DNA from: Candidatus Omnitrophota bacterium
Lineage (GTDB): Bacteria > Omnitrophota > Gorgyraeia > Aquiviventales > Aquiviventaceae
Reading direction: 5' to 3'
Assembly: GCA_020057015.1 (NCBI GenBank)
Contig: JAGVGS010000107.1
Coordinates: 1 to 43,471, forward strand
Length of the DNA: 43,471 bases
The first letter of the stretch is position 1; every line of letters starts with the position of its first letter. Shown here in pieces: positions 10,223-27,700 of the stretch. A program made the position numbers and the translations under genes. The notes beneath the pieces were generated by a model that searched no databases, was not told where the DNA came from, and saw nothing but the letters and a program-made list of their open reading frames with translations.

Positions 10223-10239
10223 GGAAGGAGGCGAACGCG

Positions 10240-11433: not shown

Positions 11434-11475
11434 CTGAAACCCGCGGTTGGCAGTGCAGGACAAAGATATTTTTAT

Positions 11476-11550
11476 AAAGCGGGGACAGTCACTAATTTCT
11501 GTTGTGCCGACTAGGGTCCAGGGCACAAATTAGTGACTGTCCCCGTTTTT
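11476..11550 (+). repeat. Palindromic ~75-bp element, copy 2 (intact; bidirectional terminator-like)
   Basis: The 23-nt arms AAAGCGGGGACAGTCACTAATTT (11476-11498) and AAATTAGTGACTGTCCCCGTTTT (11527-11549) are complementary apart from one G:T position. An inner stem TTGTGCC/GGCACAA extends the hairpin. A T-run follows and an A-run precedes. Confidence 0.85.
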
Positions 11551-11571
11551 GTTGCTATTCTTAAGGGTAAC

Positions 11572-13098
11572 ATGTGCTGCCTGAAACGCTTGCCGACTCT
11601 ATTCTTGGTAGCAAGCCCTCTATCGTTCCTCTTAGCGCCTTCGCTGGCATGGGCCGCTGCGGCCGAAGGCAGTGAGACCCTCAAGTGGCTGGTGATCGGC
11701 CTCGTGGTCGTGGCCACCCTCGTCATCGGCCAATTGATTTACGGGTTCTCCCAAAAGGATAAGGCGATCAAGGCTAAGGCCGAGACGCCTGAGGCCCCCG
11801 CCGCGCCGACCCCGGCCATCTACCACCCGAAAGCCGTGGTGCCCTCCATTCTTGATCAGCTGGCGCAAGCCGGTGTCAACCCCAAGCAGCGCGAGCAGCT
11901 GGCCCAGTCGCTTTCGACCATTGTGACCAAGACCGTCGACGCGCAGGTGGATGCCGTCAAGCAAGAGGTCAAGAAGCACTACGACCAAGTCTTGGAGGAG
12001 AAGCAGTGGGCCGAGCGCGCGCTGCAGCGCAAGTATCAAGAGGCGCTGATTGACCGCAACCAGACCGCGCAGGTGCTCGAGAGTATTGCCGAAGGCCTAG
12101 TGGTGGTGAACAACAAGGGCGAAGTGGTGATGATGAATCCGGCCGCCGAGAAACTGCTGGCGGTGCGGCAGGCCGAGCGCGTGGGCAAGCCGCTGGTCGA
12201 ATCGCTCGATGACGATCAGATCATCTCGCTGGTGCAGGGCTCGACCGAGGGCCGCGAGATCGTGGTCAATACGAAGCAAGAGAGCACCAAGCGCGTGCTG
12301 CGCGCGAGCAACGCCGTGGTCACCGATCAGGATGGCCGGGCCGTGGGCATGGTGGCGGTGCTGCATGACGTGACGAAGCAGAAGGAAGTGGAGGATCTCA
12401 AATCCGAGTTCGTCTCCAAGGTCAGCCACGAGCTGCGCACCCCGCTCATGGCGATCCAGTACGCGCTCTCGCTGCTGGATGATCAGATGGCCGGCAGCAT
12501 GTCTGAGGACGCGCAGGCCTTCGTGTCCCTGACCCGTCGTAATCTGGAGCGGCTCAACTTGCTGGTGAGCGACCTGCTCGATCTTTCCAAGCTCGAGGCC
12601 AAGAAGATGGAGCTGCGGCTGGAGCTGATCGCGCTCGGCCCGATTCTGCAGACCGTGTGCGATACGATGGACGCGTGGGCCAAGAGCAAGCAGATCACGC
12701 TGGTGCGGCGCGTGGTGGAAGAGGTGCCCATGATGCGCCTGGATGCGTCGCGCCTGATTCAGGTGCTCACCAACCTGGTGGGCAACGCCATCAAATTCAC
12801 GCCGGAAAAGGGCAAGATCACCGTCGAGGGCAAGCTGGCGGCGGATCAGCAGCACGTGGAAGTGAGCGTCATCGACACCGGGGTGGGGATTGCCCCCGAG
12901 GATCTGCCCAAACTGTTCAACAAGTTTCAGCAAGTGGGCGAGCGCACCGCCAGCGACATGAGCGGCACGGGGTTAGGGCTCGTGATCGCCAAGGAGATCG
13001 TCGAGCTGCACCAGGGCCGGATCTGGGTGGAGAGCGATGGCAAGCGGGGCGCGCGGTTTGTGTTTACCCTGCCGCTGCACGCGGCGGCCGCGGCGTGA
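11572..13098 (+). CDS. Membrane-bound PAS-domain sensor histidine kinase
   Basis: ATG 11572 is chosen because the track start GTG 11533 lies inside the repeat. It has a signal/TM segment, a coiled-coil and a PAS-like region (ESIAEGLVVVNNKGEVVMMNPAAEKLL). H-box is FVSKVSHELRTPL, N-box LVGNAIKFT, G-boxes DTGVGI and GTGLGLVIAKEIVELHQGRIWVES. Confidence 0.9.
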   Translation: MCCLKRLPTLFLVASPLSFLLAPSLAWAAAAEGSETLKWLVIGLVVVATLVIGQLIYGFSQKDKAIKAKAETPEAPAAPTPAIYHPKAVVPSILDQLAQAGVNPKQREQLAQSLSTIVTKTVDAQVDAVKQEVKKHYDQVLEEKQWAERALQRKYQEALIDRNQTAQVLESIAEGLVVVNNKGEVVMMNPAAEKLLAVRQAERVGKPLVESLDDDQIISLVQGSTEGREIVVNTKQESTKRVLRASNAVVTDQDGRAVGMVAVLHDVTKQKEVEDLKSEFVSKVSHELRTPLMAIQYALSLLDDQMAGSMSEDAQAFVSLTRRNLERLNLLVSDLLDLSKLEAKKMELRLELIALGPILQTVCDTMDAWAKSKQITLVRRVVEEVPMMRLDASRLIQVLTNLVGNAIKFTPEKGKITVEGKLAADQQHVEVSVIDTGVGIAPEDLPKLFNKFQQVGERTASDMSGTGLGLVIAKEIVELHQGRIWVESDGKRGARFVFTLPLHAAAAA

Positions 13099-14135
13099 TG
13101 GTGCGCATCAGCCAACTGGTCAAGCCCACGGCCGAGCCGATCGAGCCACCCCCCGCTCTTGTGCAGACCCCTGAGCCCAGGAGCCCCAGCGGAGCGCCTG
13201 TGGCGGTCCCCCTGCGAGTGGCCGGACTCCCGCGCGCGCAGCCAGGCGTGCACAGCGAGGAGGCCCAGCAGCTCTATGAGGCGCTGATGAAGGAATGCGC
13301 CCGCGTGTTTGACGAGGCGCGCAGCGAGCAGCCGATTACGCTGCAAGCGCTGCCCGCGCTGGCCAACGCGCTGGTGGCCCAGGTGCGGGGTGGGAATGAG
13401 CGCCTCAGTCGCTTGAGCAGCGCGGTGGCCGGTGGCTTTGCGCTGCCGCGGCATGCGGTCAACGTGGCGGTGCTGGCCTGCCGGGTCGGGTCGGTGCTGG
13501 GGCTCTCTGAGCTGCAATTGCAGGAAGTGGCCCTCGCCGCGCTGCTGCATGATATCGGCATCATCGGCATGGAGCATCTGGTGCACCTGCCCGCGCATTT
13601 GACGCCGGAGCAGCGCACCCGCGTGCGCGAGCATCCGCTCTTAGCCCACCGGCTGTTGCAGCGCACCCAGGCGATTTCTCCCCTAGTCTGCGAGCTGATC
13701 TTGCAGCAGCACGAGCGGGAAGATGGCAGCGGCTACCCGCGGCAGCTGGCCGGGGCAGAGATTCAAGAGCCGGCGCAATTGCTCGGCTTGGCCCAGGTCT
13801 TTGAAGCGCTCACGCACGATCGGCCGTATCGCGGACACTTGCCGCCGGCTGAGGCGCTGCGCACGCTGGTGCAGGATCAGCGCGCGGGGTTTCGCGACCG
13901 GCTGCTCAAAGGGCTGCTGCAGACGATTCCGGTATATCCGGTGGAAAGCTGGGTACGCCTGAGCACCGGGGAATTGGCCCAGGTGGTGGCGGAGATGCCC
14001 CACCACCCGCTGTCGCCGACCGTGGCCGTGCGCTTTGACCCGCAAGGCCAGCCGCTCGGCCCTGTGCGCACGGTGGCTCTGGCGCGCGATCGCAGTCTCT
14101 CGATCCTGCGCGCGGTGCCTGCTCCGGCGGCCTGA
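13098..14135 (+). CDS. HD-GYP domain protein (cyclic-dinucleotide phosphodiesterase family)
   Basis: ATG 13098 overlaps the kinase stop (TGATG). Motifs are ALLHDIGII, HPLLAHRLL and QQHEREDGSGYPRQL. The track's longer ORF from 12657 overlaps the kinase gene out of frame. Confidence 0.9.
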   Translation: MVRISQLVKPTAEPIEPPPALVQTPEPRSPSGAPVAVPLRVAGLPRAQPGVHSEEAQQLYEALMKECARVFDEARSEQPITLQALPALANALVAQVRGGNERLSRLSSAVAGGFALPRHAVNVAVLACRVGSVLGLSELQLQEVALAALLHDIGIIGMEHLVHLPAHLTPEQRTRVREHPLLAHRLLQRTQAISPLVCELILQQHEREDGSGYPRQLAGAEIQEPAQLLGLAQVFEALTHDRPYRGHLPPAEALRTLVQDQRAGFRDRLLKGLLQTIPVYPVESWVRLSTGELAQVVAEMPHHPLSPTVAVRFDPQGQPLGPVRTVALARDRSLSILRAVPAPAA

Positions 14136-14137
14136 GG

Positions 14138-14947
14138 ATGTACGCCTCGTATTGGGGCCTGCGTGAAAAGCCCTTCGAGAACACGCCAGACCCGCGCTTT
14201 TTTTACGCCTCCCAGCAGCATCGCGAAGCCGAAGCGCGCATGCTGTACTGCATCCGCGAGCGCAAAGGGGCCGGCCTGCTCACCGGGGTGTTTGGCTGCG
14301 GCAAGACCGTGGTAGGGCAGGTGGTGCTCAAGGAGCTCAACCAGGAGCGCTATCGCACCGCGGTGCTCACCAACCCCCGCCTGAATGACCTCGATTTGCT
14401 GCGGCTGATCGCGCACTACCTGGGGGCCTCGCCGCTGGCCGCCACCAAGGCCGACGTGCTGATCCAGCTCGAGATGATCCTGACGGAGAACGCCAAGGAA
14501 GGGCGCGATAGCGTGGTGCTGATTGACGAGGCGCACACGATTCAAAGCCCCGAGGTGTTCGAAGAGCTGCGCCTGCTGCTCAATTGCCAGTGGCAGCAGC
14601 GCTTTCTGCTCACCCTCCTGCTGTTCGGCCAGCCAGAGCTGGCGCGCAACATCGACCAGAACAAGCCCTTGGAGCAGCGCATCGGCGTGAAGGCCTCGCT
14701 CGGGCCCATGAGTTTTGAGGAAACCAGCGCCTATGTGGTGCATCGGCTGCGCGTGGCCGGGCACGAGGAGCCAGGCGGCGTGTTTTCCTACGAGGCGCTG
14801 CGCGTGGTGCACGACTCCACCGGCGGCATCCCCCGGCGGGTCAACCGGCTGTGCGACATGCTGCTGCTGGCCGGCATGGGGGCCCGTACCGCCCGCATCG
14901 AGCCGCCGCTGGTGCAGGAAGAAGTGGCTGGGCTGCAGACGGCATGA
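14138..14947 (+). CDS. ExeA/GspA/MshM-like AAA ATPase (AAA_22)
   Basis: N-terminal YWGLREKPFENTPDPRFFYASQQHREAEARMLY. Walker A is GVFGCGKT and Walker B VVLIDEAH. No peptidoglycan-binding extension is present. Confidence 0.8.
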   Translation: MYASYWGLREKPFENTPDPRFFYASQQHREAEARMLYCIRERKGAGLLTGVFGCGKTVVGQVVLKELNQERYRTAVLTNPRLNDLDLLRLIAHYLGASPLAATKADVLIQLEMILTENAKEGRDSVVLIDEAHTIQSPEVFEELRLLLNCQWQQRFLLTLLLFGQPELARNIDQNKPLEQRIGVKASLGPMSFEETSAYVVHRLRVAGHEEPGGVFSYEALRVVHDSTGGIPRRVNRLCDMLLLAGMGARTARIEPPLVQEEVAGLQTA

Positions 14948-15762
14948 ACTATACCGCGCACTGGGGCTTAAGCGCCCTGCCGTTTGAGAACACGCCGGAC
15001 CCGCGCTTTCTCTACCAATCAGCTCAGCACGAGGAAGGCCTTGCGCGCTTGCGCTATGTCGTGGAGGGGGCGAAAGGGGCAGCGGTGCTCACGGGTGTCT
15101 TTGGCTGCGGTAAGACGCTGCTCGCGCGCTCGCTGCTGAGCAGCCTCTCGTCCAGCCGCTATCGCATGGCGTATCTCGCCAACCCCATGATGTCCGAGGT
15201 AGAGCTGCTGCATGGCATTGCGCACAAGCTCAACGTGCCGGATCTGCCCCCGCGCCGCTCGGATGTGCTGGTGGATGCGCTGCTGGATGGCATCGAGCAC
15301 GCGCTGCGGGAGAATCAGCGCGACGGCAAGCAGACCCTGGTCATCGTCGATGAGGCGCATGTGATTCGGGAAGAGCGGGTCTTCGATGAGCTGCGGCTGC
15401 TGTTGAATTTTCAGGATGACGACCGCTTTTTACTGACGCTGATCCTCATGGGCCAACCGGAGCTGAAGGAGATTATCGACCGGCACAAACCGCTGGCGCA
15501 GCGTATCTGCATGGGGTATCATCTGATTGCCTTCACCGAAACCGAGACCGGTGGCTACCTGCAGCATCGGCTGCAAGTGGCCGGGGCCAGCCGGACGCTG
15601 TTTGATCCCGGTGCGGTGCAGGCGGTGCAGGAACTGAGCGGCGGCATCCCGCGGCGCATCAACCAGATCGCCGACTTGGCGCTGCTCACCGGCATGGGCC
15701 GGCAAGCAAGCCACATCGATGCCGCGATCGTGCAAGAGGCCGCGGCCAGCGTCGGAGTGTAA
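14944..15762 (+). CDS. ExeA/GspA/MshM-like AAA ATPase, tandem paralogue
   Basis: ATG 14944 overlaps the upstream stop (ATGA). Motifs are HWGLSALPFENTPDPRFLYQSAQHEEGLARLRY, GVFGCGKT and LVIVDEAH. Confidence 0.8.
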   Translation: MNYTAHWGLSALPFENTPDPRFLYQSAQHEEGLARLRYVVEGAKGAAVLTGVFGCGKTLLARSLLSSLSSSRYRMAYLANPMMSEVELLHGIAHKLNVPDLPPRRSDVLVDALLDGIEHALRENQRDGKQTLVIVDEAHVIREERVFDELRLLLNFQDDDRFLLTLILMGQPELKEIIDRHKPLAQRICMGYHLIAFTETETGGYLQHRLQVAGASRTLFDPGAVQAVQELSGGIPRRINQIADLALLTGMGRQASHIDAAIVQEAAASVGV

Positions 15763-16580
15763 TGAGAACCGGAGTGTCCCAGCGGTGGTCACTGACGCAG
15801 CGCGTCTCATGGGGCGCGGCTGTGTTGTTGACCGCGCTTCTCGTCTCGCTTTTCGCCCTCAGCCGCTTGACCGCGCAAGCCATGCTCCAGGTGCGCCAGG
15901 CCGGGCAAGCCGTGGACACTTTGGCCCAGGCGCGCGAGCTGCACGCGCCGCTGACGCGCCTCTTGGCCTATGCGCAACTCGTCTACCAGGGCGACCGCAC
16001 ATTTCACGAGGCCCTCACGCAGCAGATCCAGCTCGTGGAGCAGGGCTTCACCCAGCTTGAGCAACAAGTGGCCGTGATGGCGCCGGCGCAGTGGTCGCTG
16101 TTGAAACAAGCCCAGGCCGACTGGGTGGATACCCGCGCTGCCCTGCAAGAACTCTTACCTGCCAATGACCTTGCGATGGAGCGCCGCTTGAACTTGCGTG
16201 AAGCGTTGCGCAGCCGCTCGAGCAGCCTGCAGCGCGCCCTGGAAGGCTTAGAGCGGGAATCCCAGGCGCAGCGCGTGACATTGACGGCGAGGGCCTCGCG
16301 CTGGTCCGGCTGGGTGGACCGCGCCGCCGCGCTCTTGATGGTCTGCTGGTTGATGGCTGGCCTGGCGCTGTGGTGGGTCTTCAGCCGGCGCCTATTGGGC
16401 CCGTTGGAGCAAGTAGCGGCTGCGGCCCAGGCCCTGGCACAGGGCGATTTGAGCTTCCGGATGCAGCGGCGCGCCGGCGAGGGCGCAGAGCCCCTGGTGG
16501 CGTCGTTTAATGCCATGGCCGAAAGCTTGCAGCGTTCACAGGAGCGATTGACCCCGCCGCGAGAAGTCGTGCGATCGTAG
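15762..16580 (+). CDS. Two-TM sensor-like protein with HAMP domain and no output domain
   Basis: The start overlaps the upstream stop (TAATG). TM1 is AAVLLTALLVSLFAL, followed by a ~150-aa helical loop and TM2 LLMVCWLMAGLALWWVF. The HAMP-like segment is RRLLGPLEQVAAAAQALAQGDLSFR..LVASFNAMAESLQRS. Confidence 0.65.
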   Translation: MRTGVSQRWSLTQRVSWGAAVLLTALLVSLFALSRLTAQAMLQVRQAGQAVDTLAQARELHAPLTRLLAYAQLVYQGDRTFHEALTQQIQLVEQGFTQLEQQVAVMAPAQWSLLKQAQADWVDTRAALQELLPANDLAMERRLNLREALRSRSSSLQRALEGLERESQAQRVTLTARASRWSGWVDRAAALLMVCWLMAGLALWWVFSRRLLGPLEQVAAAAQALAQGDLSFRMQRRAGEGAEPLVASFNAMAESLQRSQERLTPPREVVRS

Positions 16581-16602
16581 CCACCGCGGCCTTTTATTTT
16601 GC

Positions 16603-17637
16603 ATGCGCCTCTCTGACCTGATAGGCAAGACCCCGCCCGACCCTTTACCTCCTAAGCGGACCGCACCCCTTCCTGAGGCTGCGGCACCGATGGCGCCACC
16701 ACCAGCGCTCAAGACTTCAGCAGCCACCCCAGCGGACGTCGCCGGCACGCCCTTGGAGAGGATCTATGACGAGCTGCTGGTGTTTGTGCGACAACTGTTT
16801 GAGCAAGCGCGCGCTGGCCAGCCGTTGGACCTGAGCGCCGCTGTGCCGCTGTTGCAGCGCCTGCCTGCGCTGGATCAGGGCATGGTGGAGCTCGTCTCTG
16901 GGTTGATCAACCGCCATACGGAAGAAAACTATTTGTATAGCCACTCGGTCAATGTGGCGCTGTTGGCCTCGTATTTAGCGCAGCGGCTGAATCATGCGCC
17001 GCAGGTCGCCCAGCAGCTGGCCCTCGCCGGCTTGTTGCATGACATCGGCATGGCCGGTGCCGCAGAGCAGTTGGCGGCATCCCCCCGCAAGCTGACGAAG
17101 GAAGAATGGAAAGTCATGGCGAAGCATCCGGAGGCGTCGCTCGAGCGCCTGCAACACGCCGCCGTGCTCACGCCGGAAGCGCGCCAGGCGATCGTCTCGC
17201 ACCATGAGCGCGAGCAAGGCCGCGGGTATCCCACCGGTGAGCCGCAAGCCGCCACCCTCAATGAGTTCGGCAAGATCTTGGCGGTGTGTGATGTGTATGA
17301 CGCCGTGACCCACCCGCGCAGCTACCGCCGGCGGCAGAACCCGGCGCAGGGCATCAAGCTGCTCATCGAAGGCGCGGGGACGCAATATGACCATCGCGTC
17401 GTGCGCGCGCTCATCGGCGAGCTCTCGCTCTATCCGCCCGGCAGCATGATCAAGCTCAACACGAATGAAATCGGGCTGGTGGAGCGCATCAATTTCGACG
17501 CCCCGCTGCGTCCGGTGGTCGTCATCCACTATGATGCCGAGGGCCATGCGTTGAGCAGTCCGCGCCGGGTGGATTTGATCCATCAGCCCTTTTCATACGT
17601 GAAAGAAGTGGTCACGGACAAGGAGCCGGTGGCATGA
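16603..17637 (+). CDS. HD-GYP domain protein, second copy
   Basis: Motifs are GLLHDIGMAG, KHPEASLERL and VSHHEREQGRGYPTGE, followed by CDVYDAVTHPRSYR. Confidence 0.9.
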   Translation: MRLSDLIGKTPPDPLPPKRTAPLPEAAAPMAPPPALKTSAATPADVAGTPLERIYDELLVFVRQLFEQARAGQPLDLSAAVPLLQRLPALDQGMVELVSGLINRHTEENYLYSHSVNVALLASYLAQRLNHAPQVAQQLALAGLLHDIGMAGAAEQLAASPRKLTKEEWKVMAKHPEASLERLQHAAVLTPEARQAIVSHHEREQGRGYPTGEPQAATLNEFGKILAVCDVYDAVTHPRSYRRRQNPAQGIKLLIEGAGTQYDHRVVRALIGELSLYPPGSMIKLNTNEIGLVERINFDAPLRPVVVIHYDAEGHALSSPRRVDLIHQPFSYVKEVVTDKEPVA

Positions 17638-18725
17638 ACTGGCGCTGGTTCTTGCCCGGCGTCTTGGTGGTGGGGGTCGGCACGATGCTGGTGGATTGGC
17701 CCGGGCTGTTCAAGCGCCCGCGTGCTACGCCTGCGCCGGTGGTCGCGAGCGCCCCAGGACCACCAGGACCCGCGGCGGCCATGAGCGAGCCCGCACCAGG
17801 CGCTCAGGCGGCCGATGAGCCCACCCCAGAGGCCTGGACGCCGCGCGGCGAAGTGAGTGCTGCCCCGTTGCCTGCCGTAGTAGCGAGCCCCACCCCCCCA
17901 GCTTCCGTAGCACTCGCAGCCCCACCGCAGCTCGACCAAGCCATTCGCAAGGTGGAGCGCGTGAAGCAGCAGGTGGAGGAGCAATTCAGCGCCGTGCGCC
18001 GTGAGCGCGAGGCGCTGCGCAATGAGTTGCAAGCGCGGCGCCAGCAGGTGTTGGTGCTGGAGCGGCGCATCGCCCAGCTGAGCCAGCAGGTGCAGCAGCA
18101 AGCACAGTCGCTGCAAGCACTCGCCGCGGCCCGCGCGCAGGCTGAGCAAGGGCTGGAGGCTTCGCGCAAGCGCTTGGCGGTCTTCGAGCAAGACCCGCTC
18201 GCCAAGCAGATCAGCCGCTTGCAACAACGGGCCGATGAAGTGCCGGATCTGCAGCAAGCCCTCAAGGCACAAGAGCACACCTCGCGCCAGCTCAACCAAC
18301 AGCTGGCTCAGAGCCTGAAGCAGGTGGCCACCCTGAATGAGCGGGTCACATCTCGCGGAGCGGACCTCAGCCGCCTGGAGCGCGAGCTAAGCGCTGTGAA
18401 GTCCGAGCAATCACGGCTGAAGAAGGAAAACCGGCAGCTCACGCGGGCGGCGGAGCGCGCCGGCCGCAAGCCCTGGGAGGGTTTTGAGCGGCTCTTTGGC
18501 CAATCGCGGCACTCCGTGCATGCGGGCAAGGGGCTCTTTGCCATGGATCAGGCCTCGGTCCAGCAGGTGCTCGCCCGCGCGCGCGATCAGGTGGAGCAGC
18601 TAGCCGATGCCGTGGAAGATCGCGATCAGATCATTGCCGAGCTGCAGACCGCCTTGGCCGAGCAAGAGCGCCGTCTGGAGCAGGCCGAAGCCGTCATCGC
18701 CCTCCTCGAAGGTCGTCCTGAGTAA
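17634..18725 (+). CDS. Membrane-anchored Pro/Ala-rich, Gln-rich coiled-coil protein of unknown function
   Basis: The start overlaps the upstream stop (ATGA). N-terminal TM is WFLPGVLVVGVGTMLV, followed by a PA-rich linker. Long heptad-like stretches follow, e.g. LQARRQQVLVLERRIAQLSQQVQQQAQSLQAL. Confidence 0.55.
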   Translation: MNWRWFLPGVLVVGVGTMLVDWPGLFKRPRATPAPVVASAPGPPGPAAAMSEPAPGAQAADEPTPEAWTPRGEVSAAPLPAVVASPTPPASVALAAPPQLDQAIRKVERVKQQVEEQFSAVRREREALRNELQARRQQVLVLERRIAQLSQQVQQQAQSLQALAAARAQAEQGLEASRKRLAVFEQDPLAKQISRLQQRADEVPDLQQALKAQEHTSRQLNQQLAQSLKQVATLNERVTSRGADLSRLERELSAVKSEQSRLKKENRQLTRAAERAGRKPWEGFERLFGQSRHSVHAGKGLFAMDQASVQQVLARARDQVEQLADAVEDRDQIIAELQTALAEQERRLEQAEAVIALLEGRPE

Positions 18726-18756
18726 AGTGTCAGACACTTGAAGTGTCTGACACTTT
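18724..18756 (+). repeat. REP-like perfect palindrome, left flank of the RAYT gene
   Basis: AAAGTGTCAGACACTT G AAGTGTCTGACACTTT has 16-nt arms that are exact reverse complements. It begins inside the stop codon of the upstream gene. Confidence 0.9.
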
Positions 18757-18866
18757 CTGATAAGGTAAACGCACGTTCTGGAATTCCTCGTACGACCCAT
18801 TCCGTTTTACCCTCGCGCGAAATCCTGTGCACATGTGTAGATTTTTTCCACCGCAGCGAGGCTGCC

Positions 18867-19538
18867 ATGCCGAGGCCGTATCGTTCATGGGTGCCAGAGG
18901 GCATCTACCATTTGACGCTTCGCGGAAACAATCGTCAGACACTCTTCCTTGATGCGCAGGACTATCAGCGCTACCTTCAATTATTAGAGATCTACCGCCA
19001 GCGGCATCCTTTTCACCTGCTGGCTTACGCCTTGATGCCCAATCATGTGCATCTCCTGGTACAGGCGCTGCCGGCGGGCGCCCTTTCAGATGCCATGCGT
19101 GAGTTGGGTCCGGCCTATACACGGTACTTCAATGCGCGCTATGGGTGTGTTGGACACTTATATCAGGGACGCTTTCACAGTAGTTGGGTGAATGAGGAGG
19201 CTTACGTGCGCGAGGTTTCCCGGTACATTCATCTCAACCCTGTCCGTGCCCATCTAGCGGATGACCCCCGCGAGTATCGATGGAGCAGCTATCAGATGTA
19301 CCTAGGGCAGAGTGGACAGAGTAGCTGTGCGGTAGAAACCAGGGTTATTCTTTGCCTGTTCGGCACCGCCCTGGTCGAGCAACGCCAACACTATCGCTTG
19401 TTTGTGGAAGTATGGGCTCGCGATGCCATCCAACGGCAGAATGGGGCCTTGCGGCTGCAGCGGCTGGGTCTGGTCCCCTCGCGCCGCTGGTGGGGTGCTG
19501 CTGCTACGGTTGAAGTGTCAGACACTTCAAGTGTCTGA
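18867..19538 (+). CDS. REP-associated tyrosine transposase (RAYT; IS200/Y1 HUH family)
   Basis: ATG 18867 is an internal start of track ORF 18738. Motifs are YHLTLRGNNRQTLF, HUH motif LMPNHVHLLV, YQGRFHS and catalytic Tyr context SRYIHLNPVRAHL. The 3' end runs into the right palindrome. Confidence 0.85.
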   Translation: MPRPYRSWVPEGIYHLTLRGNNRQTLFLDAQDYQRYLQLLEIYRQRHPFHLLAYALMPNHVHLLVQALPAGALSDAMRELGPAYTRYFNARYGCVGHLYQGRFHSSWVNEEAYVREVSRYIHLNPVRAHLADDPREYRWSSYQMYLGQSGQSSCAVETRVILCLFGTALVEQRQHYRLFVEVWARDAIQRQNGALRLQRLGLVPSRRWWGAAATVEVSDTSSV

Positions 19539-19541
19539 CAC
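19512..19541 (+). repeat. REP-like palindrome, right flank of the RAYT gene
   Basis: GAAGTGTCAGACACTT C AAGTGTCTGACAC has the same arms as 18724-18756, with a different central base and a shorter outer stem. Confidence 0.85.
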
Positions 19542-19555: not shown

Positions 19556-19585
19556 TTGACGGGGGCCGGGGAGGTCAGGTAGGCT
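19556..19585 (+). promoter_or_regulatory. Putative sigma70-like promoter for the riboswitch leader
   Basis: TTGACG (19556-19561), an 18-nt spacer, then TAGGCT (19580-19585). The -10 is weak. The call rests mainly on the parallel with the layout at 8155 and 40135. Confidence 0.35.
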
Positions 19586-19621
19586 TTAGAAGGTACACGT
19601 TCCCTGACAATTTAGTTCGCT

Positions 19622-19694
19622 GTTCAAGGCAAACTATCCGAAAGGGTAGGACGCAAAGCCACGGGCCCTGATCGACGGGCAGCCGGGTTGCCAG
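19622..19694 (+). promoter_or_regulatory. c-di-GMP-I (GEMM-I) riboswitch aptamer
   Basis: CAAGGCAAAC, UAUCC-GAAA-GGGUA, GGACGCAAAGCC, ACGGGCCCUGAUCGACGGGCAGCCGGGUUGCC. All signature blocks are present: the GGCAAAC junction, the GNRA-capped P1b, the GACGCAAAGCC junction and the CAGCCGGGUUGCC 3' strand. Confidence 0.85.
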
Positions 19695-19703
19695 TATCCG
19701 TTG

Positions 19704-19736
19704 CGTCCTCCGAAGTTCGGAGGACGTTTTTGTTTG
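19704..19736 (+). terminator. Intrinsic terminator (riboswitch expression platform)
   Basis: A 9-bp GC-rich stem CGTCCTCCG/CGGAGGACG with loop AAGTT, followed by TTTTTGTTTG. Its 5' strand overlaps TTGCGTCC (19701-19708), the exact complement of the aptamer segment GGACGCAA (19649-19656). Confidence 0.8.
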
Positions 19737-19793
19737 TCCGCGTTGAGGAGTCTGGATGCCAACGGCAAGTCAATGGAAGGACGCAACGATCCC

Positions 19794-19836
19794 CCACGGG
19801 GGCTGCCGCACGCCGGCTGGCTGCCGTGGTTTTTTT
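19794..19836 (+). terminator. Second terminator-like hairpin with U7 tract inside the long leader
   Basis: CCACGG (19794-19799) pairs with CCGTGG (19824-19829), closing a GC-rich imperfect hairpin, followed by TTTTTTT (19830-19836). A second GGACGCAA copy sits just upstream at 19779-19786. Confidence 0.4.
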
Positions 19837-19846
19837 GTGCCCAGTT

Positions 19847-19941
19847 GCCGGTGCCAGGCACCGGCCTCCTCTTGCTTATGGGAAGCGCCCTCGCGTGCAG
19901 CCCTTGTGAACAGGGGTGCCAGGCACCGGATGCCTGGCACC
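19847..19941 (+). repeat. Cluster of GGTGCCAGGCACCGG repeats and hairpins upstream of the operon start
   Basis: The 15-nt direct repeat GGTGCCAGGCACCGG occurs at 19850-19864 and 19915-19929. The second copy forms a perfect 11-bp hairpin: GGTGCCAGGCA (19915-19925), loop CCGGA, TGCCTGGCACC (19931-19941). The first copy lies in hairpin GCCGGTG-CCAGG-CACCGGC (19847-19865). Confidence 0.6.
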
Positions 19942-19966
19942 AGCCCTGCAGGAGCTTAACGCCACG

Positions 19967-21217
19967 ATGCCTAGGCCGTTGCGCGTAGACATGCCAGGGG
20001 CCCTTTACTATGTCACCTCGAAAGCGATGGAGGGCGTGACTCTCTTTCAGACCCCGGAAGATTATCAAGCCTATCTCGCACTCCTGCACGAGGGCCAGGC
20101 CCGGCATGGCGTCAAGCTCTTCGCTTATGTGTTACTGCCGGATCAACTGCACCTTTGCTTTGAGCTGCCCCAGGGGACGGCCATCTCTACCGTGATGCAT
20201 GCGCTGAACACCCGCTACACCAAATACGTGGCGCGGCGCGATGGGCGCTCCGGGCATGTGTTTCAGCAGCGCTTTCGGCTGACCCTCATTGAGAAAGCCC
20301 CGCATCTGCTTGATACGGTGGCGGGCTTGCACCGGCTGCCGCAACGACTGGGCTTAAGCGACCACGCGCTGAGTTATGCGTGGAGCAACATTGGCGAGTA
20401 CTGCGGCGAGGCGCAGACGCGCCGGCCGGAAGTGCAGGAAGTGCTTGCCCTGTTGCAGGCCGCGGCCCAGGGTATGGACTATTGCGCGTATGTTCAAGCG
20501 CTGCCGGCCAATGTGCTGGAAGCGTTTGATGCGCATCGCCAGCAGCATGTGGTGGGCTCTGAGGCGTTCGTCGCCCGTGTGCGCGCTGAACAGCGTAAGG
20601 CCGCAGTGGCACCTGAGATGGCGGCGATGGCGGCACCCGCGACCCCGATCGCGGCACCAGCTGCCGTGACGACCACTCCTGGGCGGGTGCGGCGCTGGCA
20701 ACCGGCCCTCGTGGGCGCGCTGGCGGTGAGCTTGATGACCGTGAGCACGGCGGGTGTCATCGCCAAGAAGAAGGGCAGTGACAAGCGCAAGCGGCCTGCC
20801 CCCACGGCCTACGCCGAAGCGCCAGGCACAGGCACCGCGAGCTTGGCGACTTATGCGCCGGCGGTGACGCTGGCAGGCAGCGAGTGGGCGCTGCAGATCA
20901 AGCCGATGTATGTCAACGGGGCTGCCCCCATCCAGCAGGACGAGCTGCACTTTGACCTCAAGCAAGTCAGCTCCGCGCTCTTACAAGCGCAGGGCTTTAC
21001 CCCCTCGAACTATTCGCTGACCAGCGATGCCAATGGCGTGGTGTTGTGGGAGACGATGCAGACCGGGCCTCGCGATGAGGTGATCTGCTGGCGCGGCGAG
21101 TGGGACGGTGAGGTGATGCGGGGCGTGATGACCCGCCAAGCGCCAGGCCAGGTCGCCAGCAACTACGCCTTCGTCGGCACGAAGCAGGTAGGCCAGGGCA
21201 CAAGGAGCGAGACGTGA
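19967..21217 (+). CDS. Membrane protein with degenerate Y1/RAYT-like N-terminal domain and unknown extracytoplasmic C-terminal domain
   Basis: ATG 19967 is preceded by GGAG 12 nt upstream. The N-terminus aligns by eye with the neighbouring RAYT (ALYYVTSKAMEGVTLF, FAYVLLPDQLHLCF, GHVFQQRF). The HUH motif is degraded from NHVHLL to DQLHLC. The Tyr motif is changed from YIHLNP to GLHRLP. One TM segment is PALVGALAVSLMTVSTAGVIA. Confidence 0.65.
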   Translation: MPRPLRVDMPGALYYVTSKAMEGVTLFQTPEDYQAYLALLHEGQARHGVKLFAYVLLPDQLHLCFELPQGTAISTVMHALNTRYTKYVARRDGRSGHVFQQRFRLTLIEKAPHLLDTVAGLHRLPQRLGLSDHALSYAWSNIGEYCGEAQTRRPEVQEVLALLQAAAQGMDYCAYVQALPANVLEAFDAHRQQHVVGSEAFVARVRAEQRKAAVAPEMAAMAAPATPIAAPAAVTTTPGRVRRWQPALVGALAVSLMTVSTAGVIAKKKGSDKRKRPAPTAYAEAPGTGTASLATYAPAVTLAGSEWALQIKPMYVNGAAPIQQDELHFDLKQVSSALLQAQGFTPSNYSLTSDANGVVLWETMQTGPRDEVICWRGEWDGEVMRGVMTRQAPGQVASNYAFVGTKQVGQGTRSET

Positions 21218-21738
21218 TGAAACGAATCCTAGCGGTGGCGGCCATCCTCTGTTGCGGCGCTCTGGCGCAGGCGGCCGAGACGCCGGTAACGTCCAAGAAG
21301 GCTGCGCCCAAACGGGCCACGGCCGATGATCTGGCAGCGACGCTCTCGAACAAGCCCGGCACATCGGCCAGCGGTCAGGCCAAGGCCACGGCGGTCGATG
21401 CAGGCACCGCTGCGCTGGCGGATGCCAAGATCGAGCGGCGCATCGTGGAAGGACACATCAGCACCGTGACCAAGCGCGCGATCAACGTGGAGTACGAGAC
21501 GAAAGGCAGTGAATCCTTCGAAATGATGCTGCCGCTCGCTGCCCAAGTGAAAGTGGAAGGCGCGGCGGCGCTGGCTGATCTCAAACGGGGCGACCGGGTC
21601 AAAGTCGGCATTGAACAAACGTACCGGCAGAGCGACAAGGGCGAACGGGTGATTCTAAAGACCGAGGCGTTGGTCGTTGCCCTGGTGCAGCGCGCACCCG
21701 AAACTTTGACGACGAGCGAGGAAGTCACCACACCGTAA
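21217..21738 (+). CDS. Small secreted protein of unknown function
   Basis: Start is ATG 21217 or GTG 21214, overlapping the upstream stop, with AAGGAG at 21202-21207. Signal peptide is MKRILAVAAILCCGALAQA/AE. No recognisable motif is present. Confidence 0.6.
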   Translation: MKRILAVAAILCCGALAQAAETPVTSKKAAPKRATADDLAATLSNKPGTSASGQAKATAVDAGTAALADAKIERRIVEGHISTVTKRAINVEYETKGSESFEMMLPLAAQVKVEGAAALADLKRGDRVKVGIEQTYRQSDKGERVILKTEALVVALVQRAPETLTTSEEVTTP

Positions 21739-21739
21739 C

Positions 21740-24700
21740 ATGACACCAGCGAACCGGAGAGGGGGTGAGCAGTCTATGGGAGCCACTTCGTGGCGCAGTT
21801 GGCGGGTAATCGCCGCCGGGGTCCTCGGCATTTTGACGGCCGGACTGCTCGCTTTCCCGCAGCCGGCCGAGGCGTTTCAGGTCAAGCGCGTGCTGCGCAA
21901 TACCACGGCCTTTCAGTTGCTGAATGGGGAAGAGGTCAAGACCTATGATCTGACGTCTCAGCTCGGCGGCGTGCCGCTGGACATGACTAAATGCTTTATC
22001 GTGGCCAGCACTTTCCCAAGTTCGGGCTTCAACACGCAAACAGACGCCTTTATCGCTATCGATGATCCATCCACCATCATGGCGGCCCGCCGCACGGGTA
22101 CGGCCCAGGTGGATATTCAGTTCATGGTCATTGAGTTTGTAGACGGCGTGTCGGTTCAATCGGGGCTGACGGTCATCTCTGAAACTGCGCTTACCAAGAA
22201 TATCGTACTTCCGGCCAGTGTTGATTTGGCAAAGTCCTTCGCGCTGATTACTTGGCGCTCCTTCAACCATAACACTCAGGCTACGCATGATGACAAGAAT
22301 CTTTATAGCGCCGACCTGACCGCGGTCAACAACTTGCGATTGCAGCGCAGCGACCAGGCCGGCACTTTCCTCAACGATGTGTATTACCAGGTGGTGTCTT
22401 TTGATGAGGACGTGACCGTCACGAAAGGTACGGTGGATATCGACGCGGTACAGGATGCCGGCGAGACATCTGACAACGGCACGGCTATGGTCGCCACCAT
22501 CAACCCGGCGCTCACCTCGGTAAATGACGCCATGATGTTCTTTACCATTCGGCCCTCCGCGGCGGTCAATGGGGTGGATCAACAATACAAAGTTGATGGT
22601 TATATCAACGCAACCAACGCCATCACATTTACGCGCAATAACAATACTAACAGCGTCTCCATTGTGTATTACTTGCTCAATTTCAGCAATGAGATGTACG
22701 TCCAGCATGCACGTAACACCGCAACCTTGCCCAACGGCACTGCCAGCGGCACGTTCAATTTGCCTACTGTTACAACGCTGGCCCGCACGTTCGGCACCTT
22801 CAGCTCCTCCGGGCCGGGCACTGCGGGCAACGCAGATAACCCCAGCCTCTATGTGACCGGGGCACTGGCATCGGTGGCTGGGCCTCAGACGCAGGTGACC
22901 TTGGCCCGCTCCGGTACGTCCGGAGCTACAGCGGTTAGCTACATGGCGCCTGAATTGCCGCCTGTCAATGTGACCGCACCCGATACCGCCAGTATTATCT
23001 GGAAAGTCGGCGAGGCGCGTACGATTACCTGGAAGCATGCCGATGATGTGGCGGCCAACACCGCGGCCATTGATCTGTCGGTTAACGGCGGCAGCGCCTG
23101 GTTAGGCACATCGATTACGTGTGATGAGGGCGCGCGCACCATGGCCAGCGATGTCTGCACGTGGACGATTCCGGATTCGCTCGGCGGCACCAGTGTGATC
23201 GGCAATAACTTGCGGATCCGAGTGCGGGATACGGTCCTCGCGGCCCGCAACTTTGACCCGACCGATGTGTCATTTGAAATCATCGGCTCGATTACCGTGA
23301 CGGCCCCCAATGGGAGTGAAGTGTGGTACGTCGGGGACACGAATCGGAACATCACATGGACGAACACCGGCAACCACACCACTGACAAGGTCAACATCTA
23401 TCTCTCGGAAAACGGCGGCAGCACCTACCCCACCGCGATTGTGACGGGAGGCAGTGCTCCTACGGTTGAATCGGGCACCTATGCGTGGAACCCGATGCCG
23501 GACAAAATCGGTACCGATCGTCGCGTGCGGGTTGAATCTCAGAATGATCCGGCCCCCATCGATGTCTTTGACACCTCGAATGCGAACTTTGAAATCCGAG
23601 GTAGCGTGACCGTGACCTACCCGAATGGGGCGGAAACGCTGGAGACACAGAAGGCTTATAACATCACGTGGAATAAGACCGGCACGTTTGCGCCGAATAA
23701 TGAAGTGAATATTTACTACTCCAAGAACAGCGGTGGGCAGTATCCCACCACGCTTGTCACGAACCAGGCAGCCGGCGCCTCGAGCGGCTCCTACTCCTGG
23801 ACCCCGGTGGCGGGGGATGTCAGCGATTTTGCGCGCGTGAAGGTGACGCAACGCGATAACTCCAATGTGACGGATGAATCGAACGCGGACTTCTTGGTCA
23901 AGCCCTCCATTGTGGTGAGCTATCCGAACGGGGGCGAGAACCTGGTGGTCGGCACGCCGACTAATGTGACCTGGACCACGAATGGGGCAGGCTTAGCCAA
24001 CGTCAAAATTGAGTATTCCATCAATGGCGGGGGTGCGTATAGCCCGATTATCGAGAATGACAACATTGCTGATGATGGGATTGTGACCAACAACGGCACG
24101 CGCTCGTGGGATGTGCCGGATGTCATTGGCGGCAATGTGCTGATCAAGATCAGCAATCCCTCGATATCGGCCATTAACGACGTATCGGATGCGATCTTCC
24201 GGGTGAAGGGGCAAACCAAGGTGTTGATTCCGAATGGGACCGAGCTGTGGCCGGTGGGCGGCTCACGCAACATTCAATGGAGCAATGTGGGTACGTTCAC
24301 CAGCAACGTGGACATTCGCTTTTCCACCAATGGCGGGGCAGATGGCTATCCGGGCGGGAACACGATTGTGGCGGGTCACACCAACACCGGGGCCAGCGGC
24401 AGCTACACCTGGAATCCGGTGGTGGACATTGCCGGGGGCTACAACAACGCGATGCGGATTAAAGTGCTGCCCGTGGATTCGGTGAACGTGGCCGAGGATA
24501 CGTCTGATGCCAGTTTTACCATCCATGGCACCTTGACCCTGGCAGCCCCCAATGGCGGCCAGACGTGGGTGTACGGCGGGGCGGCGCAGAACATCACCTG
24601 GACCAAGACCGGTGCGATCGGCAACGTGGAACTGCGCTACTCGACCAATAGCGGCGGGGGTTTCGGCTCGCCGTTTGCGACCGGCTTAAACCCGACGGCC

Positions 24701-27700
24701 GGCACACCGTATGCCTGGACGCTGCCGGACAGTCTGAGCAATGCCGCCCGTATTCAGGTGCGTACGGTGGATCAGCCCTTGGTCATTTATGATGATTCGG
24801 ATGCTGACTTCTTCCTGAAGGGGTCGCTCACCGTCACTGCGCCGAATACAGCGGTGACCTGGTACCGGGGGGATATCCAAAACGTGACCTGGACGCGCGC
24901 CGGGACAACCGGTGCGATGACCGGCAATGTTGACATTCATTACACCCCGGACAATGGGTCCAATTACTACGCGATCAGCGTGAACAACGTGCTGGCCAGC
25001 GCCGGCACCTACCCTTGGACCATTCCGACCGATGCGCCGAACGATACCGTGCAAAGCGATACGGTCAAGGTGCGCGTGCGTCTCTCGAGCGACACCGTCG
25101 TGTCCGATGAATCCAACGTCACCTTTAAGATCAAGCCTCGGCTGACCCTCACCGCGCCCAACACCAACGTTGCGTGGATCGTGGGCACCTCGCAGAACAT
25201 CACGTGGACCACGGCCGGCAGCGTGCCTAAGGTGAAGCTGAGCTATTCCACCACCGGGGGCAGTCCCTACGCGAACAGCATCGTGGCGGATCTGAGCAAC
25301 GTGAACAGCTATGCCTGGACGATTCCCGATGCCATTGGCACCCAACTGCGCGTGCTGGTGGCGAAAGACACGCCGGTGGATCCGGATAGTGCCGTGGAAG
25401 ACTTTTCCGATGCGGACTTTGAGATCAAGGGGTCGCTCACGCTGACGTCACCGAACCTGGGGACCGAGGTCTGGATCGTGGGCAGCTCGCAGAACATTAC
25501 CTGGACCAAGACCGGCAGCCTCACCGGCAATGTGAAGCTGTATTACTCCACGGACGGCGGGAGCACGTATGTGGGCGACCCGGCTAGCCCCTTTGCCACG
25601 GTGGCCGTGACCGCCGGCAGCTACGCCTGGACGATTCCGGACGCCATCGACAACGACCTGAAAGTCAAGGTCGTGTATGTTAACGACACGGCGGTGGCCG
25701 ATGCCTCAAACGCCGTCTTTACGGTGAAGGGGTCACTCACCATTACCGCACCCAACACCGGCACCGAGATCTGGGATGTGAACACCTTGCACAACATCAC
25801 CTGGACCAAGACCGGTACCATCGGCAATGTGGATTTGAGCCTCTCGCTGGATGGCGGGACCGATGGCTATGCGACGTCGATCGTCACCGGGGTGACCTCC
25901 ACCTCGCCGTATGCCTGGACGATCCCGAGCAACACCACCTTGACGGTCCAAGCCCGCGTGAAGATCGCACCCGTGACCGCCGCCCAGGCCGCGGCCGACA
26001 CCTCGGATGCCAACTTTCGCCTGCGCGGCAGCTTTACCCTAACCGCACCGAGCGGGCCGGAGAACTGGATCGTGGGGGCCTCCCAGAACATCACGTGGAC
26101 ATCGCTTGGCGGCATAGCCAACGCGAAGCTGGAATATTCCCGTGATAGCGGCAGCGACGGCTATCCGTATCTCATCACCGCCTCCACCCCGGCCGGGGCA
26201 GGCAGCTACGCTTGGACCGTGGGCTGGGCAGCGGCGGATGCGGATAAGACCAACAGCAGCACCATCCGCGTGCGGGTCTCGGATGCCGCGACCGCGGACG
26301 TCAACGACACCTCGGATGCGGACTTTACCATCCGCGGCTCGCTGGCGCTGACCGCCCCGAACGGCGGCGAAAACTGGCTGGTCGGCAGCAGCCAGAACAT
26401 CGCTTGGACCCGCACTGGGAAAATCCCGAACGTGAAGCTGGTGTATTCGGTGGATAGCGGGGTCGATGGGTATCCTGAATCAACACCCAATCAAACGATT
26501 GTTGGCTCCACCTCTGGCGAAGCGCTCAGCTACGCCTGGACGATTCCGGATAAAATCGGCACCGCGCTGCGGGTGAAGATCTATGACCTGAGCAGTGTCT
26601 CGGCGACGCCGGATACCTCGAATGCGGACTTTACCATCCGCGGCTCGCTAGCCGTGACCGCGCCCAACGGTAGCGAGAGCTGGACCTATGGCGGGGCAGC
26701 CCAGAACGTGACCTGGACGCTCAACGGCACGGTCACTGGGAATGTGAAGCTCTATTACTCCAACAACGGCGGCAGCAGCTATATGGGGGATCCAGGTACG
26801 CCCTTTGCCACCGTAGCCGCCTCGGCCGGGACCTATGCCTGGACGATTCCGGATGACCTCACCACGCAGGCTCGCGTGAAAATCACTCACGCCGGCAGCC
26901 CTACGGCGGATCCGGACGAGTCGAACGCCAACTTTACCATCAAAGGGGTATTGGTTTTGGTTGCCCCCAACGGCGGGGAGGACTGGCGCGCGGATGAGAG
27001 CCAGAACATCACCTGGACCCGCACCGGCACCATCGCCCTGGTGAACCTGTACTACTCCACCAACAGCGGCGGCACGTATCCGGTGACGATTGCCAGCGCT
27101 GTGAACGGCGGCAACCTGAGCCGCGCGTGGACGATCCCCAACACCCTGAGTGTCACCACCGCGCGCGTCAAGATCGAAGACAATGGCAATACCGCGGTGC
27201 TGGATACCTCGGATGCTGACTTCATCATCAAGCCGAAGCTTACTTTGCTGACCCCGAACGGCAGCGAAGTCTGGTACGTAAACAACAACACCGATGACAT
27301 TACCTGGACCACGAACGGCACGGTGGCGGAAGTGAACCTGAAGTACGCCACCGATGGGAGCACGTTCAGCAACCCGATCGCGACGCAGTTGGCCAACATC
27401 AACGCGTATGACAACTGGGTGATTCCCGATGCGCTCAGCACGACGGTGAAGGTGCGGGTGGAGAGCTTCACCGATGCGGCGAACGTGTCCGACGTCTCCA
27501 ACGCCGACTTCACGATCCGCGGCGCCATCACCGTGACCGCGCCCAACACGAACGTCACGTGGATTGTCGGCGACTCACAAAACGTGACCTGGACCAAGGT
27601 CGGCAGCCTCACCGGCAACGTCAATCTCTACTACTCGACGAATGGCGGCAGCAGCTACCTGGGCGACCCCGGCACGCCATTTGCTACTCCCACGGTGGCT

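Follow-up and report, generated by a model that had tools for sequence, protein, structure and literature searches.

We have analyzed a 43,471-nt stretch of DNA from a Candidatus Omnitrophota bacterium (contig JAGVGS010000107.1, positions 1 to 43,471; hereafter the window), in which the leader of an operon encoding a giant repeat protein contains a cyclic di-GMP class I (c-di-GMP-I, or GEMM-I) aptamer that, in our assessment, is likely to act as a transcriptional OFF switch. The identity of the aptamer, its helices, their conservation among related leaders and the synteny of the operon are computed results. The wiring proposed here relies on an intrinsic terminator placed outside the aptamer, the 5' strand of which can pair either with its own 3' strand or with a segment of the aptamer core.

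Identity and binding site of the aptamer

Searches with Rfam release 15 returned three aptamers of the GEMM-I clan on the plus strand of the window, at 8204-8278, 19619-19696 and 40204-40283, which head a pilin/HD-GYP operon, the giant-protein operon and an F-ATPase operon, respectively (riboswitches 1, 2 and 3). The second, found with cmscan as a complete aptamer of clan CL00126, is composed as follows:

19619-19696, plus strand: GEMM-I (c-di-GMP-I) aptamer, from Rfam RF03167 and one more clan member, covariation and binding-site letters
19620-19622 with 19692-19694, plus strand: helix P1, 3 bp
19629-19630 with 19653-19654, and 19634-19639 with 19644-19649, plus strand: helix P1a, capped by a GAAA loop (19640-19643)
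19657-19667 with 19678-19689, plus strand: helix P2

The top model at this site is RF03167 (c-di-GMP-I-GGC), with 68.9 bits against a gathering score of 59 (E 2e-14), and a second CL00126 family also scores at least its own gathering value when a 211-nt sub-window is scanned alone. This second family is likely RF01051 (gathering score 35), the obvious choice given that orthologous aptamers of nearly identical sequence reach 56-70 bits with that model. The original prediction, made from the letters of the sequence, had described a canonical GEMM-I aptamer with all its signature blocks and had suggested a covariance-model search as a check. Indeed, the score lies above the gathering value, the helices covary among orthologues, the conserved blocks GGCAAAC, GGACGCAAAGCC and GYUGCC are all present, and the equivalents of the ligand-contacting positions in Vc2 numbering are canonical, being G19628 (G20), A19655 (A47) and C19691 (C92), as obtained from the alignment to the model and a table of regular expressions.

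The assignment to a class within the clan deserves a closer look, as the core consensus of RF01051 (GACGCAAAG) and that of RF03167 (GACGCGAAG) differ at a single position, which is G in the GGC variant (GCGAAG) and A in c-di-GMP-I (GCAAAG). This position we take to be A47 in Vc2 numbering, the base intercalated between the ligand's two guanines, a role reportedly described by Smith et al. in 2009. The window aptamer carries A at position 47 (GCAAAG), and so do all of the approximately 30 related aptamers, both in orthologous leaders and in paralogous ones (riboswitches 1 and 3 and a second aptamer of locus L085, L085b). In spite of the best score, the compact P2 and the explicit P1 which it shares with RF03167, the element was therefore not assigned to the GGC variant, since the defining G is absent and A19655 stands in its place. 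From the two Rfam consensus lines we infer that the label GGC may denote G20/G47/C92; the 2017 paper in Nucleic Acids Research makes no mention of a GGC variant. The higher score of RF03167 is explained by the compact scaffold, to which its 80-nt model fits: P1 is explicit and only 3 bp long, and P2 is short and devoid of the 11-nt tetraloop receptor, as the alignment to the model shows no CCUAAG...UAUGG-type receptor for the GAAA loop at 19640-19643. The GEMM-Ib subclass is defined by an A at position 20, and the window has G19628. In Vc2, G20 and C92 recognise the ligand's G-alpha and G-beta, respectively (PMC6140456). Judged from its sequence, the element is thus a c-di-GMP-I aptamer with a canonical binding site on a compact scaffold, and c-di-GMP is its predicted ligand. 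On the minus strand, Rfam yielded nothing except a mir-1542 match at E 0.31, which corresponds to the palindromes described below, and the minus-strand open reading frame at 19634-20107 had no family match.

Terminator and anti-terminator

The elements of the putative switch, together with the promoter that may precede it, are the following:

19557-19586, plus strand: putative sigma-70-type promoter, TTGACG (19557-19562), 18-nt spacer, TAGGCT (19581-19586), identified by eye
19648-19656, plus strand: switching segment AGGACGCAA, anti-terminator 5' strand, inside the aptamer
19701-19709, plus strand: anti-terminator 3' strand TTGCGTCCT, overlapping the 5' strand of the terminator
19703-19727, plus strand: hairpin of terminator 1 (T1), GCGTCCTCCGA-AGT-TCGGAGGACGT, with its U-tract at 19727-19735 (T5GT3), from terminator scan and folding

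The terminator scan gave one site, the hairpin at 19703-19727 followed by TTTTTGTTT, with a folding energy of -19.1 kcal/mol (z = -4.7 versus shuffles). The 9-bp stem, 5-nt loop and T5GT3 tract that had been proposed are found as such, and the hairpin may alternatively be drawn with 11 bp and a 3-nt loop. It had also been noted that GGACGCAA (19649-19656) is the exact reverse complement of TTGCGTCC (19701-19708), which is correct; in fact, the complementarity reaches 9 bp, from AGGACGCAA to TTGCGTCCT, and is the longest helix between the aptamer and the downstream sequence. The switching segment spans the last P1a pairs, the GAC bulge, the junction-closing G-C pairs and A47/A48. Since T1 lies wholly 3' of the aptamer, which ends at 19696, ligand binding is unable to block it directly, and the aptamer core contains the complement of the T1 5' strand. 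An OFF riboswitch is laid out in this way, with an intrinsic terminator outside the aptamer and an anti-terminator that makes use of an aptamer strand.

Folding of truncated transcripts is consistent with such competition. For the transcript 19612-19716, the minimum free energy (MFE) is -37.6 kcal/mol with the anti-terminator versus -26.8 kcal/mol when the Rfam aptamer is forced; in the former, AGGACGCAA pairs with UUGCGUCCU and two further G-C pairs are formed, resulting in a helix that stacks on an intact P2. When folding is stepped by length from the putative start at 19594, the anti-terminator has an ensemble probability of 1.00 for transcript ends 19710-19722. In folds of the anti-terminator state, UAGUU (19613-19617) pairs with AACUA (19632-19636, in the 5' strand of P1a), which may constitute a helper helix. 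Also, a (T)TGACAA motif approximately 12 nt 5' of P1 is conserved in several leaders (19600-19617 in the window, 2625-2641 in locus L048 and 2528-2545 in locus L051). Transcription may start near 19594, for which the evidence is weak; the promoter consensus scan did not recover the putative promoter at 19557-19586. The same layout, TTGNNN, N18 and aGG-TAKRCT-TTA, also precedes the other two riboswitches of the window, as judged by eye.

Conservation of the switch among related leaders

The first protein of the operon (19967-21217) has 47 full-length homologues with 28-50% identity, one of which is named Candidatus Omnitrophica. We have examined six distinct context loci, as well as 40 metagenome loci that were fetched with a profile of this protein family. 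An aptamer above the Rfam gathering score is found upstream of the homologous gene in five of the six context loci (L041, L043, L046, L048 and L049), L051 having none above this score, and in 23 of the 40 metagenome loci. The other 17 comprise six with less than 150 nt of 5' flank, seven with insertion-bearing or truncated aptamers, as recognised by eye, and four with none. The riboswitch is found ahead of homologous operons in about 30 metagenome loci, and in this respect the statement in the original prediction that it leads the giant-protein operon holds, but the giant gene is not the first cistron. A scan of genome contigs with the first operon protein retrieved only distant Y1_Tnp domains and no orthologous locus, and exact-sequence look-ups of the window proteins matched no record.

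Pair counts were obtained from an alignment of 11 leaders, paralogous ones included, the shuffle controls of which ignore phylogeny. Over the aptamer and T1, 94% of the cells are paired and 10 pairs are altered on both sides, a number matched by none of 500 shuffles, with slid controls yielding 34-50% paired cells; P1 by itself is weak (73% paired). The 7-bp core of the anti-terminator is kept in all 11 leaders, with 98-100% of cells paired and two compensatory pairs, and the anti-terminator is seen in the truncated-transcript MFE of six out of 10 leaders.

T1 is nearly identical in 15 orthologous GC-rich leaders (GCGUCCUCC, loop, GGAGGACG, U5GU3), that of L063 having two compensatory changes. 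A near-invariant sequence is unusual for a terminator, and would make sense if the 5' strand were obliged to pair with both the invariant aptamer block GGACGC and its own 3' strand. Indeed, a three-way complementarity of aptamer GGACGC, T1 5' strand GCGUCC and T1 3' strand GGACG is conserved in sequence in these 15 leaders. The paralogous leaders provide the clearest covariation of the anti-terminator pairing: in riboswitch 3 of the window, aptamer GGGCGCAA pairs with TTGCGCCC, the 5' strand of a different terminator, and in the orthologous ATPase leader of L097, GGGCGCA pairs with TGCGCCC of yet another terminator stem. In the ATPase leader of L096 the complementarity is not clearly shown.

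A variation of this arrangement is observed in low-GC orthologues, which have a single terminator, CCAGGCA-CGGUUGGU-UGCCUGG-U8, at the position of the second terminator of the window (T2, see below) and directly after the aptamer. Its segment GCACGGU is complementary to the 5' strand of aptamer P2, GCCGUGC, which points to the use of a different aptamer strand with the same OFF sign. In the low-GC leaders of type B1, with stem CCAGGCA-AUU-UGCCUGG, no anti-terminator could be assigned with confidence. A T1-like match at 515-537 of L074 was set aside as a chance occurrence, since it lies within a coding region. No examined leader has a terminator that overlaps its aptamer, and ON wiring is therefore not available. 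Altogether, the OFF wiring put forward in the original prediction finds support in silico from the terminator outside the aptamer, from anti-terminator folding and from a pairing which is both conserved and covarying.

The leader beyond the first terminator

The aptamer is followed, in this order, by T1, a 67-codon upstream open reading frame (uORF), T2, palindromes, a 416-aa gene related to REP-associated tyrosine transposases (RAYT; REP, repetitive extragenic palindromic), a 174-aa gene and the giant gene. The elements of the leader downstream of T1 are:

19745-19959, plus strand: uORF, Shine-Dalgarno (SD) sequence GAGGAG at 19745-19750, ATG at 19756, TAA at 19957-19959, 67 codons
19794-19829, plus strand: terminator-like hairpin 2 (T2), with U7 at 19830-19836, inside the uORF; -25 kcal/mol
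19851-19940, plus strand: palindromes GTGCCAGGCAC (19851-19861 and 19916-19926) and ATGCCTGGCAC (19930-19940)

The uORF ends 8 nt ahead of the first annotated gene's start codon. Such coupled uORFs are present in 13 of 16 GC-rich leaders, where 0.75 are expected from dinucleotide shuffles; their ATG lies just after T1 or the aptamer, and their stop is at a distance of 0-8 nt from the main ATG, with which it often overlaps (TGATG or TAATG). In a comparison of three close relatives, two uORF indels (36 and 12 nt) leave the frame intact, and the pN/pS ratio (nonsynonymous to synonymous changes) is weakly lower in this frame, 0.59 versus 0.72-0.96 in the other frames. The peptide has no Pfam or NCBIfam match, and with these values a protein-coding role for it is unsupported. 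These results suggest that the frame of the uORF matters and that the peptide mostly does not.

The position of T2 and its T7-GTGCC tail are conserved in orthologues, and its stem has compensatory changes, CUACGG/CCGUAG in relatives being CCACGG/CCGUGG in the window. An SD-bearing uORF whose frame is conserved across an intrinsic terminator is the arrangement of a leader-peptide attenuator. In E. coli attenuators of the pyrBI type, translation through the intrinsic terminator suppresses it. The present leader is alike in that the uORF extends across a hairpin and U-tract as far as the start of the first structural gene; it differs in being placed downstream of a riboswitch-controlled terminator and in having a poorly conserved peptide. 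By analogy, translation of the uORF may suppress T2 and be coupled into the first gene.

As for the palindromes, GTGCCWGGCAC has only two exact copies in the window, both in the leader (0.07 expected), and almost all orthologous leaders have the motif between T2 and the first gene. The first and last palindromes can pair as RNA into a long hairpin, the region 19845-19945 folding at -54.1 kcal/mol (z -3.1). An interpretation as dispersed REP elements was rejected, as the two exact copies in 43 kb both lie in the leader. GTGCCWGGCAC resembles the GTGTCWGACAC REPs of a neighbouring true RAYT (see below).

Proposed mechanism and alternative explanations

The ligand, the sign of regulation and the roles of the uORF and T2 are deductions from sequence, folding and conservation. 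In the ligand-free RNA, AGGACGCAA would pair with UUGCGUCCU once the latter strand has been made, and the resulting anti-terminator helix would stack on P2 and withhold the 5' strand of T1, allowing RNA polymerase to pass the U-tract. With c-di-GMP bound, the core segment would be locked in the aptamer through the G-C junction pairs and the intercalation of A47, upon which the hairpin at 19703-19727, with its 11 bp, would form and transcription would end. The read-through RNA would carry a ribosome-binding site and the uORF, translated through T2 (19794-19836) and the GTGCCWGGCAC palindromes, and ribosomes behind the polymerase would probably suppress T2 and couple translation into the RAYT-like, 174-aa and 5738-aa genes. 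The net outcome would be that high c-di-GMP lowers the expression of the giant-protein operon.

A number of observations weigh against this model. In equilibrium folding with no ligand energy, the terminator has a probability of 0.93-0.99 from transcript end 19726 onward, and the MFE of the full-length leader switches between the two states with the choice of ends. As equilibrium favours the terminator without ligand, the switch would have to be kinetic, and read-through without ligand requires that a 7-11 bp helix be trapped kinetically in competition with an 11-bp hairpin with a 4-nt toehold. Also, four out of 10 leaders have other pairings in their truncated MFE, and T1 is missing in L046, L059, L061, L064 and all low-GC leaders, so that the platform is evolutionarily plastic. 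The short P1 and the P2 without the classical tetraloop receptor count on the same side, as does the promoter, which is a weak consensus match only. Finally, T2 resembles a strong intrinsic terminator, and passing T1 alone does not guarantee expression of the operon.

This last aspect bears on an unlikely alternative, according to which the riboswitch governs a short leader transcript only, from the aptamer to T1 or T2 and possibly with the uORF, T2 is an efficient constitutive terminator and the giant operon has its own promoter within or after the palindromes. T2 is indeed a conserved -25 kcal/mol hairpin with U7, and the palindromes contain CTGGCAC, a sigma-54 -24 element, the window having TGGCAC-N5-CTGCA at 19934-19949. 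However, conservation of the -12 element does not extend to other leaders and a start at this site leaves no room for a ribosome-binding site, for which reasons a sigma-54 promoter in the palindromes was rejected. Moreover, the uORF keeps its frame across T2 and finishes at the main start codon in the 13 of 16 leaders mentioned above, an observation difficult to account for if transcripts and ribosomes did not cross T2, and in low-GC orthologues the only terminator is that at the T2 position, directly after the aptamer. The equilibrium folding described above would in turn agree with T1 being a constitutive, leaky attenuator and the ligand acting otherwise, for instance by affecting the stability or processing of the RNA or the translation of the uORF, as full-length RNA gives the terminator regardless of ligand. 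Along this line, L061 has no T1 and the ribosome-binding site of its uORF comes directly after P1, and a preprint reports that Vc2 acts through RNA stability (bioRxiv 10.1101/617340). We nevertheless regard this possibility as having a small chance of being correct, since the three-way complementarity, conserved in 15 leaders and covarying in paralogous ones, is predicted by a functional anti-terminator and unneeded by a constitutive terminator.

The sensing of 3'3'-cyclic GMP-AMP (3'3'-cGAMP), or of both cyclic dinucleotides, instead of c-di-GMP alone is very improbable for the window aptamer. Seven orthologous leaders do carry A at the equivalent of G20, which is the GEMM-Ib signature, and the G20A substitution makes Vc2 bind both c-di-GMP and cGAMP (PMC6140456); however, the window has G19628, wild-type Vc2 with G20 binds cGAMP at approximately 10 uM versus picomolar c-di-GMP (PMC6140456), and the locus is rich in c-di-GMP-related parts, with HD-GYP proteins in the window and MshEN domains in L095, L097 and L098. 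Least probable of all is an ON switch, in which ligand binding would prevent termination: nothing specific speaks for it apart from the general expectation that c-di-GMP induces adhesins, T1 does not overlap the aptamer, and the only strong competitor for the T1 5' strand is the very core segment that the ligand would sequester.

Returning to the OFF switch, a broader proposal can be made only tentatively and is more doubtful than the switch itself. It holds that a composite leader is specific to a class of Omnitrophota giant-protein operons, in which T1 would be a cyclic-dinucleotide checkpoint (possibly for cGAMP in some lineages), the uORF and T2 a translation checkpoint, and the palindromes possibly the binding site of a catalytically dead, membrane-anchored RAYT-like product.

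The giant-protein operon and its neighbourhood

The genes of the operon and its surroundings are as follows:

18864-19538: bona fide RAYT, NF047646 at 93.4 bits
19967-21217, plus strand: RAYT-like gene, 416 aa, with an N-terminal Y1_Tnp domain, a hydrophobic segment and a conserved C-terminal domain
21214-21738, plus strand: secreted-looking protein, 174 aa, start overlapping the preceding stop, no family match
21740-38956, plus strand: giant repeat protein, 5738 aa, from the open reading frame listing and Pfam
40050-40125, plus strand: long hairpin with U6, -38.2 kcal/mol, z -6.05, after an epsilon-like gene (39804-40067)

The RAYT-like product matches PF01797 at 29.5 bits and NF047646 at 57 bits, the latter under the cut-off of 80, and shares 36% identity with the bona fide RAYT next door over 150 residues. 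Its motifs are degenerate, NHVHLL having become DQLHLC and YIHLNP GLHRLP, so that the HUH motif has lost its first His and YIHLNP its Tyr, and its C-terminal domain contains the motif WETMQTGP..GE..CWRGEWDG. Every homologue of the gene has a small gene and a giant gene downstream, and the protein may represent a hairpin-binding regulator that has been domesticated. Doublets of GTGTCWGACAC lie on either side of the true RAYT (18727-18753 and 19515-19541; four copies versus none expected), and the whole RAYT/REPIN unit (18727-19541) is inserted approximately 15 nt upstream of the putative promoter of the riboswitch.

A small gene at the position of the 174-aa gene is syntenic in all context loci. 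The 5738-aa open reading frame of the original prediction exists at 21740-38956, and its product has an N-terminal signal or anchor, tens of Ig-like repeats of approximately 90 aa of the Kre9_KNH type and a C-terminal coiled-coil region; homologous loci encode giant proteins of 5901 and 6681 aa with the same Kre9_KNH Pfam matches. The hairpin at 40050-40125 is likely the 3' end of the riboswitch-headed transcription unit, which would probably run through the giant gene, a gene for a membrane protein of approximately 300 aa and the epsilon-like gene.

The AtpA protein encoded further downstream (41298-42788) is 70-76% identical to many Candidatus Omnitrophica/Omnitrophota proteins, which makes this phylum the most likely origin of the contig. 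Loci L095, L097 and L098 share a synteny composed of a giant Kre9_KNH protein, a protein of approximately 300 aa, the ATPase epsilon subunit, the ATPase operon and a type II secretion/type IV pilus (T2SS/T4P) ATPase with MshEN. The MshEN domain is known to bind c-di-GMP, and this conserved synteny therefore indicates that several c-di-GMP-responsive parts cluster at the locus.

Relation to known systems

The GEMM-I aptamer class and its use in terminator-based OFF switches are already established, and the riboswitch itself adds little to them. With the Vc2-type aptamer of Vibrio cholerae (RF01051/CL00126) the window element shares P1, P1a with a GNRA loop, P2, the conserved blocks and G20/A47/C92, from which it differs in the 3-bp P1 and in the short P2 without the 11-nt receptor motif. 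The GEMM-Ib riboswitches for 3'3'-cGAMP (Geobacter Gs1761 and others) have the same scaffold, and their A20 is found in the seven orthologous leaders, the window having G20. The closest functional parallel is in C. difficile, in which all class I c-di-GMP riboswitches are transcriptional OFF switches (Cd1/flgB, PPEP-1, CD2797 and others) and one of them precedes the calcium-binding adhesion protein gene CD2797 (PMC11477304). These are alike in having a GEMM-I aptamer followed by an intrinsic terminator, with ligand favouring termination (as predicted here) and, in one case, an adhesion gene downstream, whereas the window case, known from sequence, belongs to Omnitrophota, concerns a giant-protein operon and has an additional uORF, T2 and palindromes. 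An OFF switch before an adhesin-like gene had been considered unexpected; such an arrangement is uncommon, but the CD2797 precedent (PMC11477304) makes this an overstatement, and the role of the giant protein as an adhesin is unproven.

A literature search on Omnitrophota giant genes found no mention of riboswitches, nor did the full texts searched mention c-di-GMP; one paper notes conserved pilZ and secretion loci nearby. A modest added interest lies in the conserved link to giant-protein operons, the composite leader and the A20 variants among orthologues. The model predicts, for an uncultured phylum, that a family of very large surface-protein operons is off at high c-di-GMP. If true, the composite leader would give the giant genes of Omnitrophota their first described regulatory logic, tying their expression to low cyclic-dinucleotide levels, and the conserved arrangement of a uORF across a terminator and the RAYT-like first gene are testable leads. 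The presence of three GEMM-I riboswitches in the window suggests that RNA-based control by c-di-GMP is a major regulatory layer in this organism.

Variant aptamers in orthologous leaders

The leaders with A at the equivalent of G20 are those of L056, L060, L068, L074, L077, L085 and L086, so that, depending on the lineage, this operon may respond to different cyclic dinucleotides. Several orthologous aptamers contain a structured insertion of approximately 50-70 nt, located either at the A47 junction, exactly where GGACGC meets AAAGCC, or inside P1a, and score below the Rfam gathering value (L051/L057 at about 2545-2705, L063, L071, L041 at 5600-5716, L068 and L080); L041 and L063 have an inserted hairpin in common, GAAGCCAACCGC-GAAA/AGA-GCGGAUUGGCGAA. 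A further subgroup (L049 at 91-226, L054, L073 and L083; Rfam 38-40 bits) keeps T1, the switching segment and P2, with the GGCAAAC block and the P1a 5' strand being absent from the 5' half of the aptamer, and these may be degenerate aptamers or adopt a different fold. Also, several leaders have tandem heptamers absent from the window, GCTCAAG or GCTGGAG in three to four copies, then the inverted complement CCTTCAG or CCTCGAG in three to four copies, located between the palindromes and the first gene (L043 at 5925-5980, L048 at 2915-2980, L051 at 2895-2980, L060 and L083). Repeats and inverted complement make up a long hairpin inside the uORF.

The other two riboswitches of the window

The first aptamer (8204-8278) matches RF03167 at 71.3 bits and precedes an operon at 8343-18725 that encodes a pseudopilin-like protein, a PAS histidine kinase, two HD-GYP-type proteins (HD_5), two AAA_22 ATPases and a HAMP protein. 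Its own 3' half includes GGATCGCCGGGTTGCCGAAGG at 8259-8279, of which an exact 21-nt duplicate is found at 8292-8312, and this second copy provides the 5' strand for a terminator hairpin at 8295-8339, after which comes GTTTGTGTTT. Closure of the aptamer with either copy is in principle possible, and either switch sign is therefore conceivable for riboswitch 1.

The third aptamer (40204-40283, in the region 40204-40335) matches RF01051 at 62.3 bits and shares the OFF-type wiring of the second. Downstream of it comes an F-type ATPase operon (c, a b/delta fusion, alpha and onward), the epsilon-like gene being on the other side of the riboswitch, and this arrangement of riboswitch and F-ATPase is conserved in two of three related Omnitrophota contigs (L096 at 560-721 and L097 at 1374-1454). 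Control of an ATP synthase operon by c-di-GMP would be unusual.

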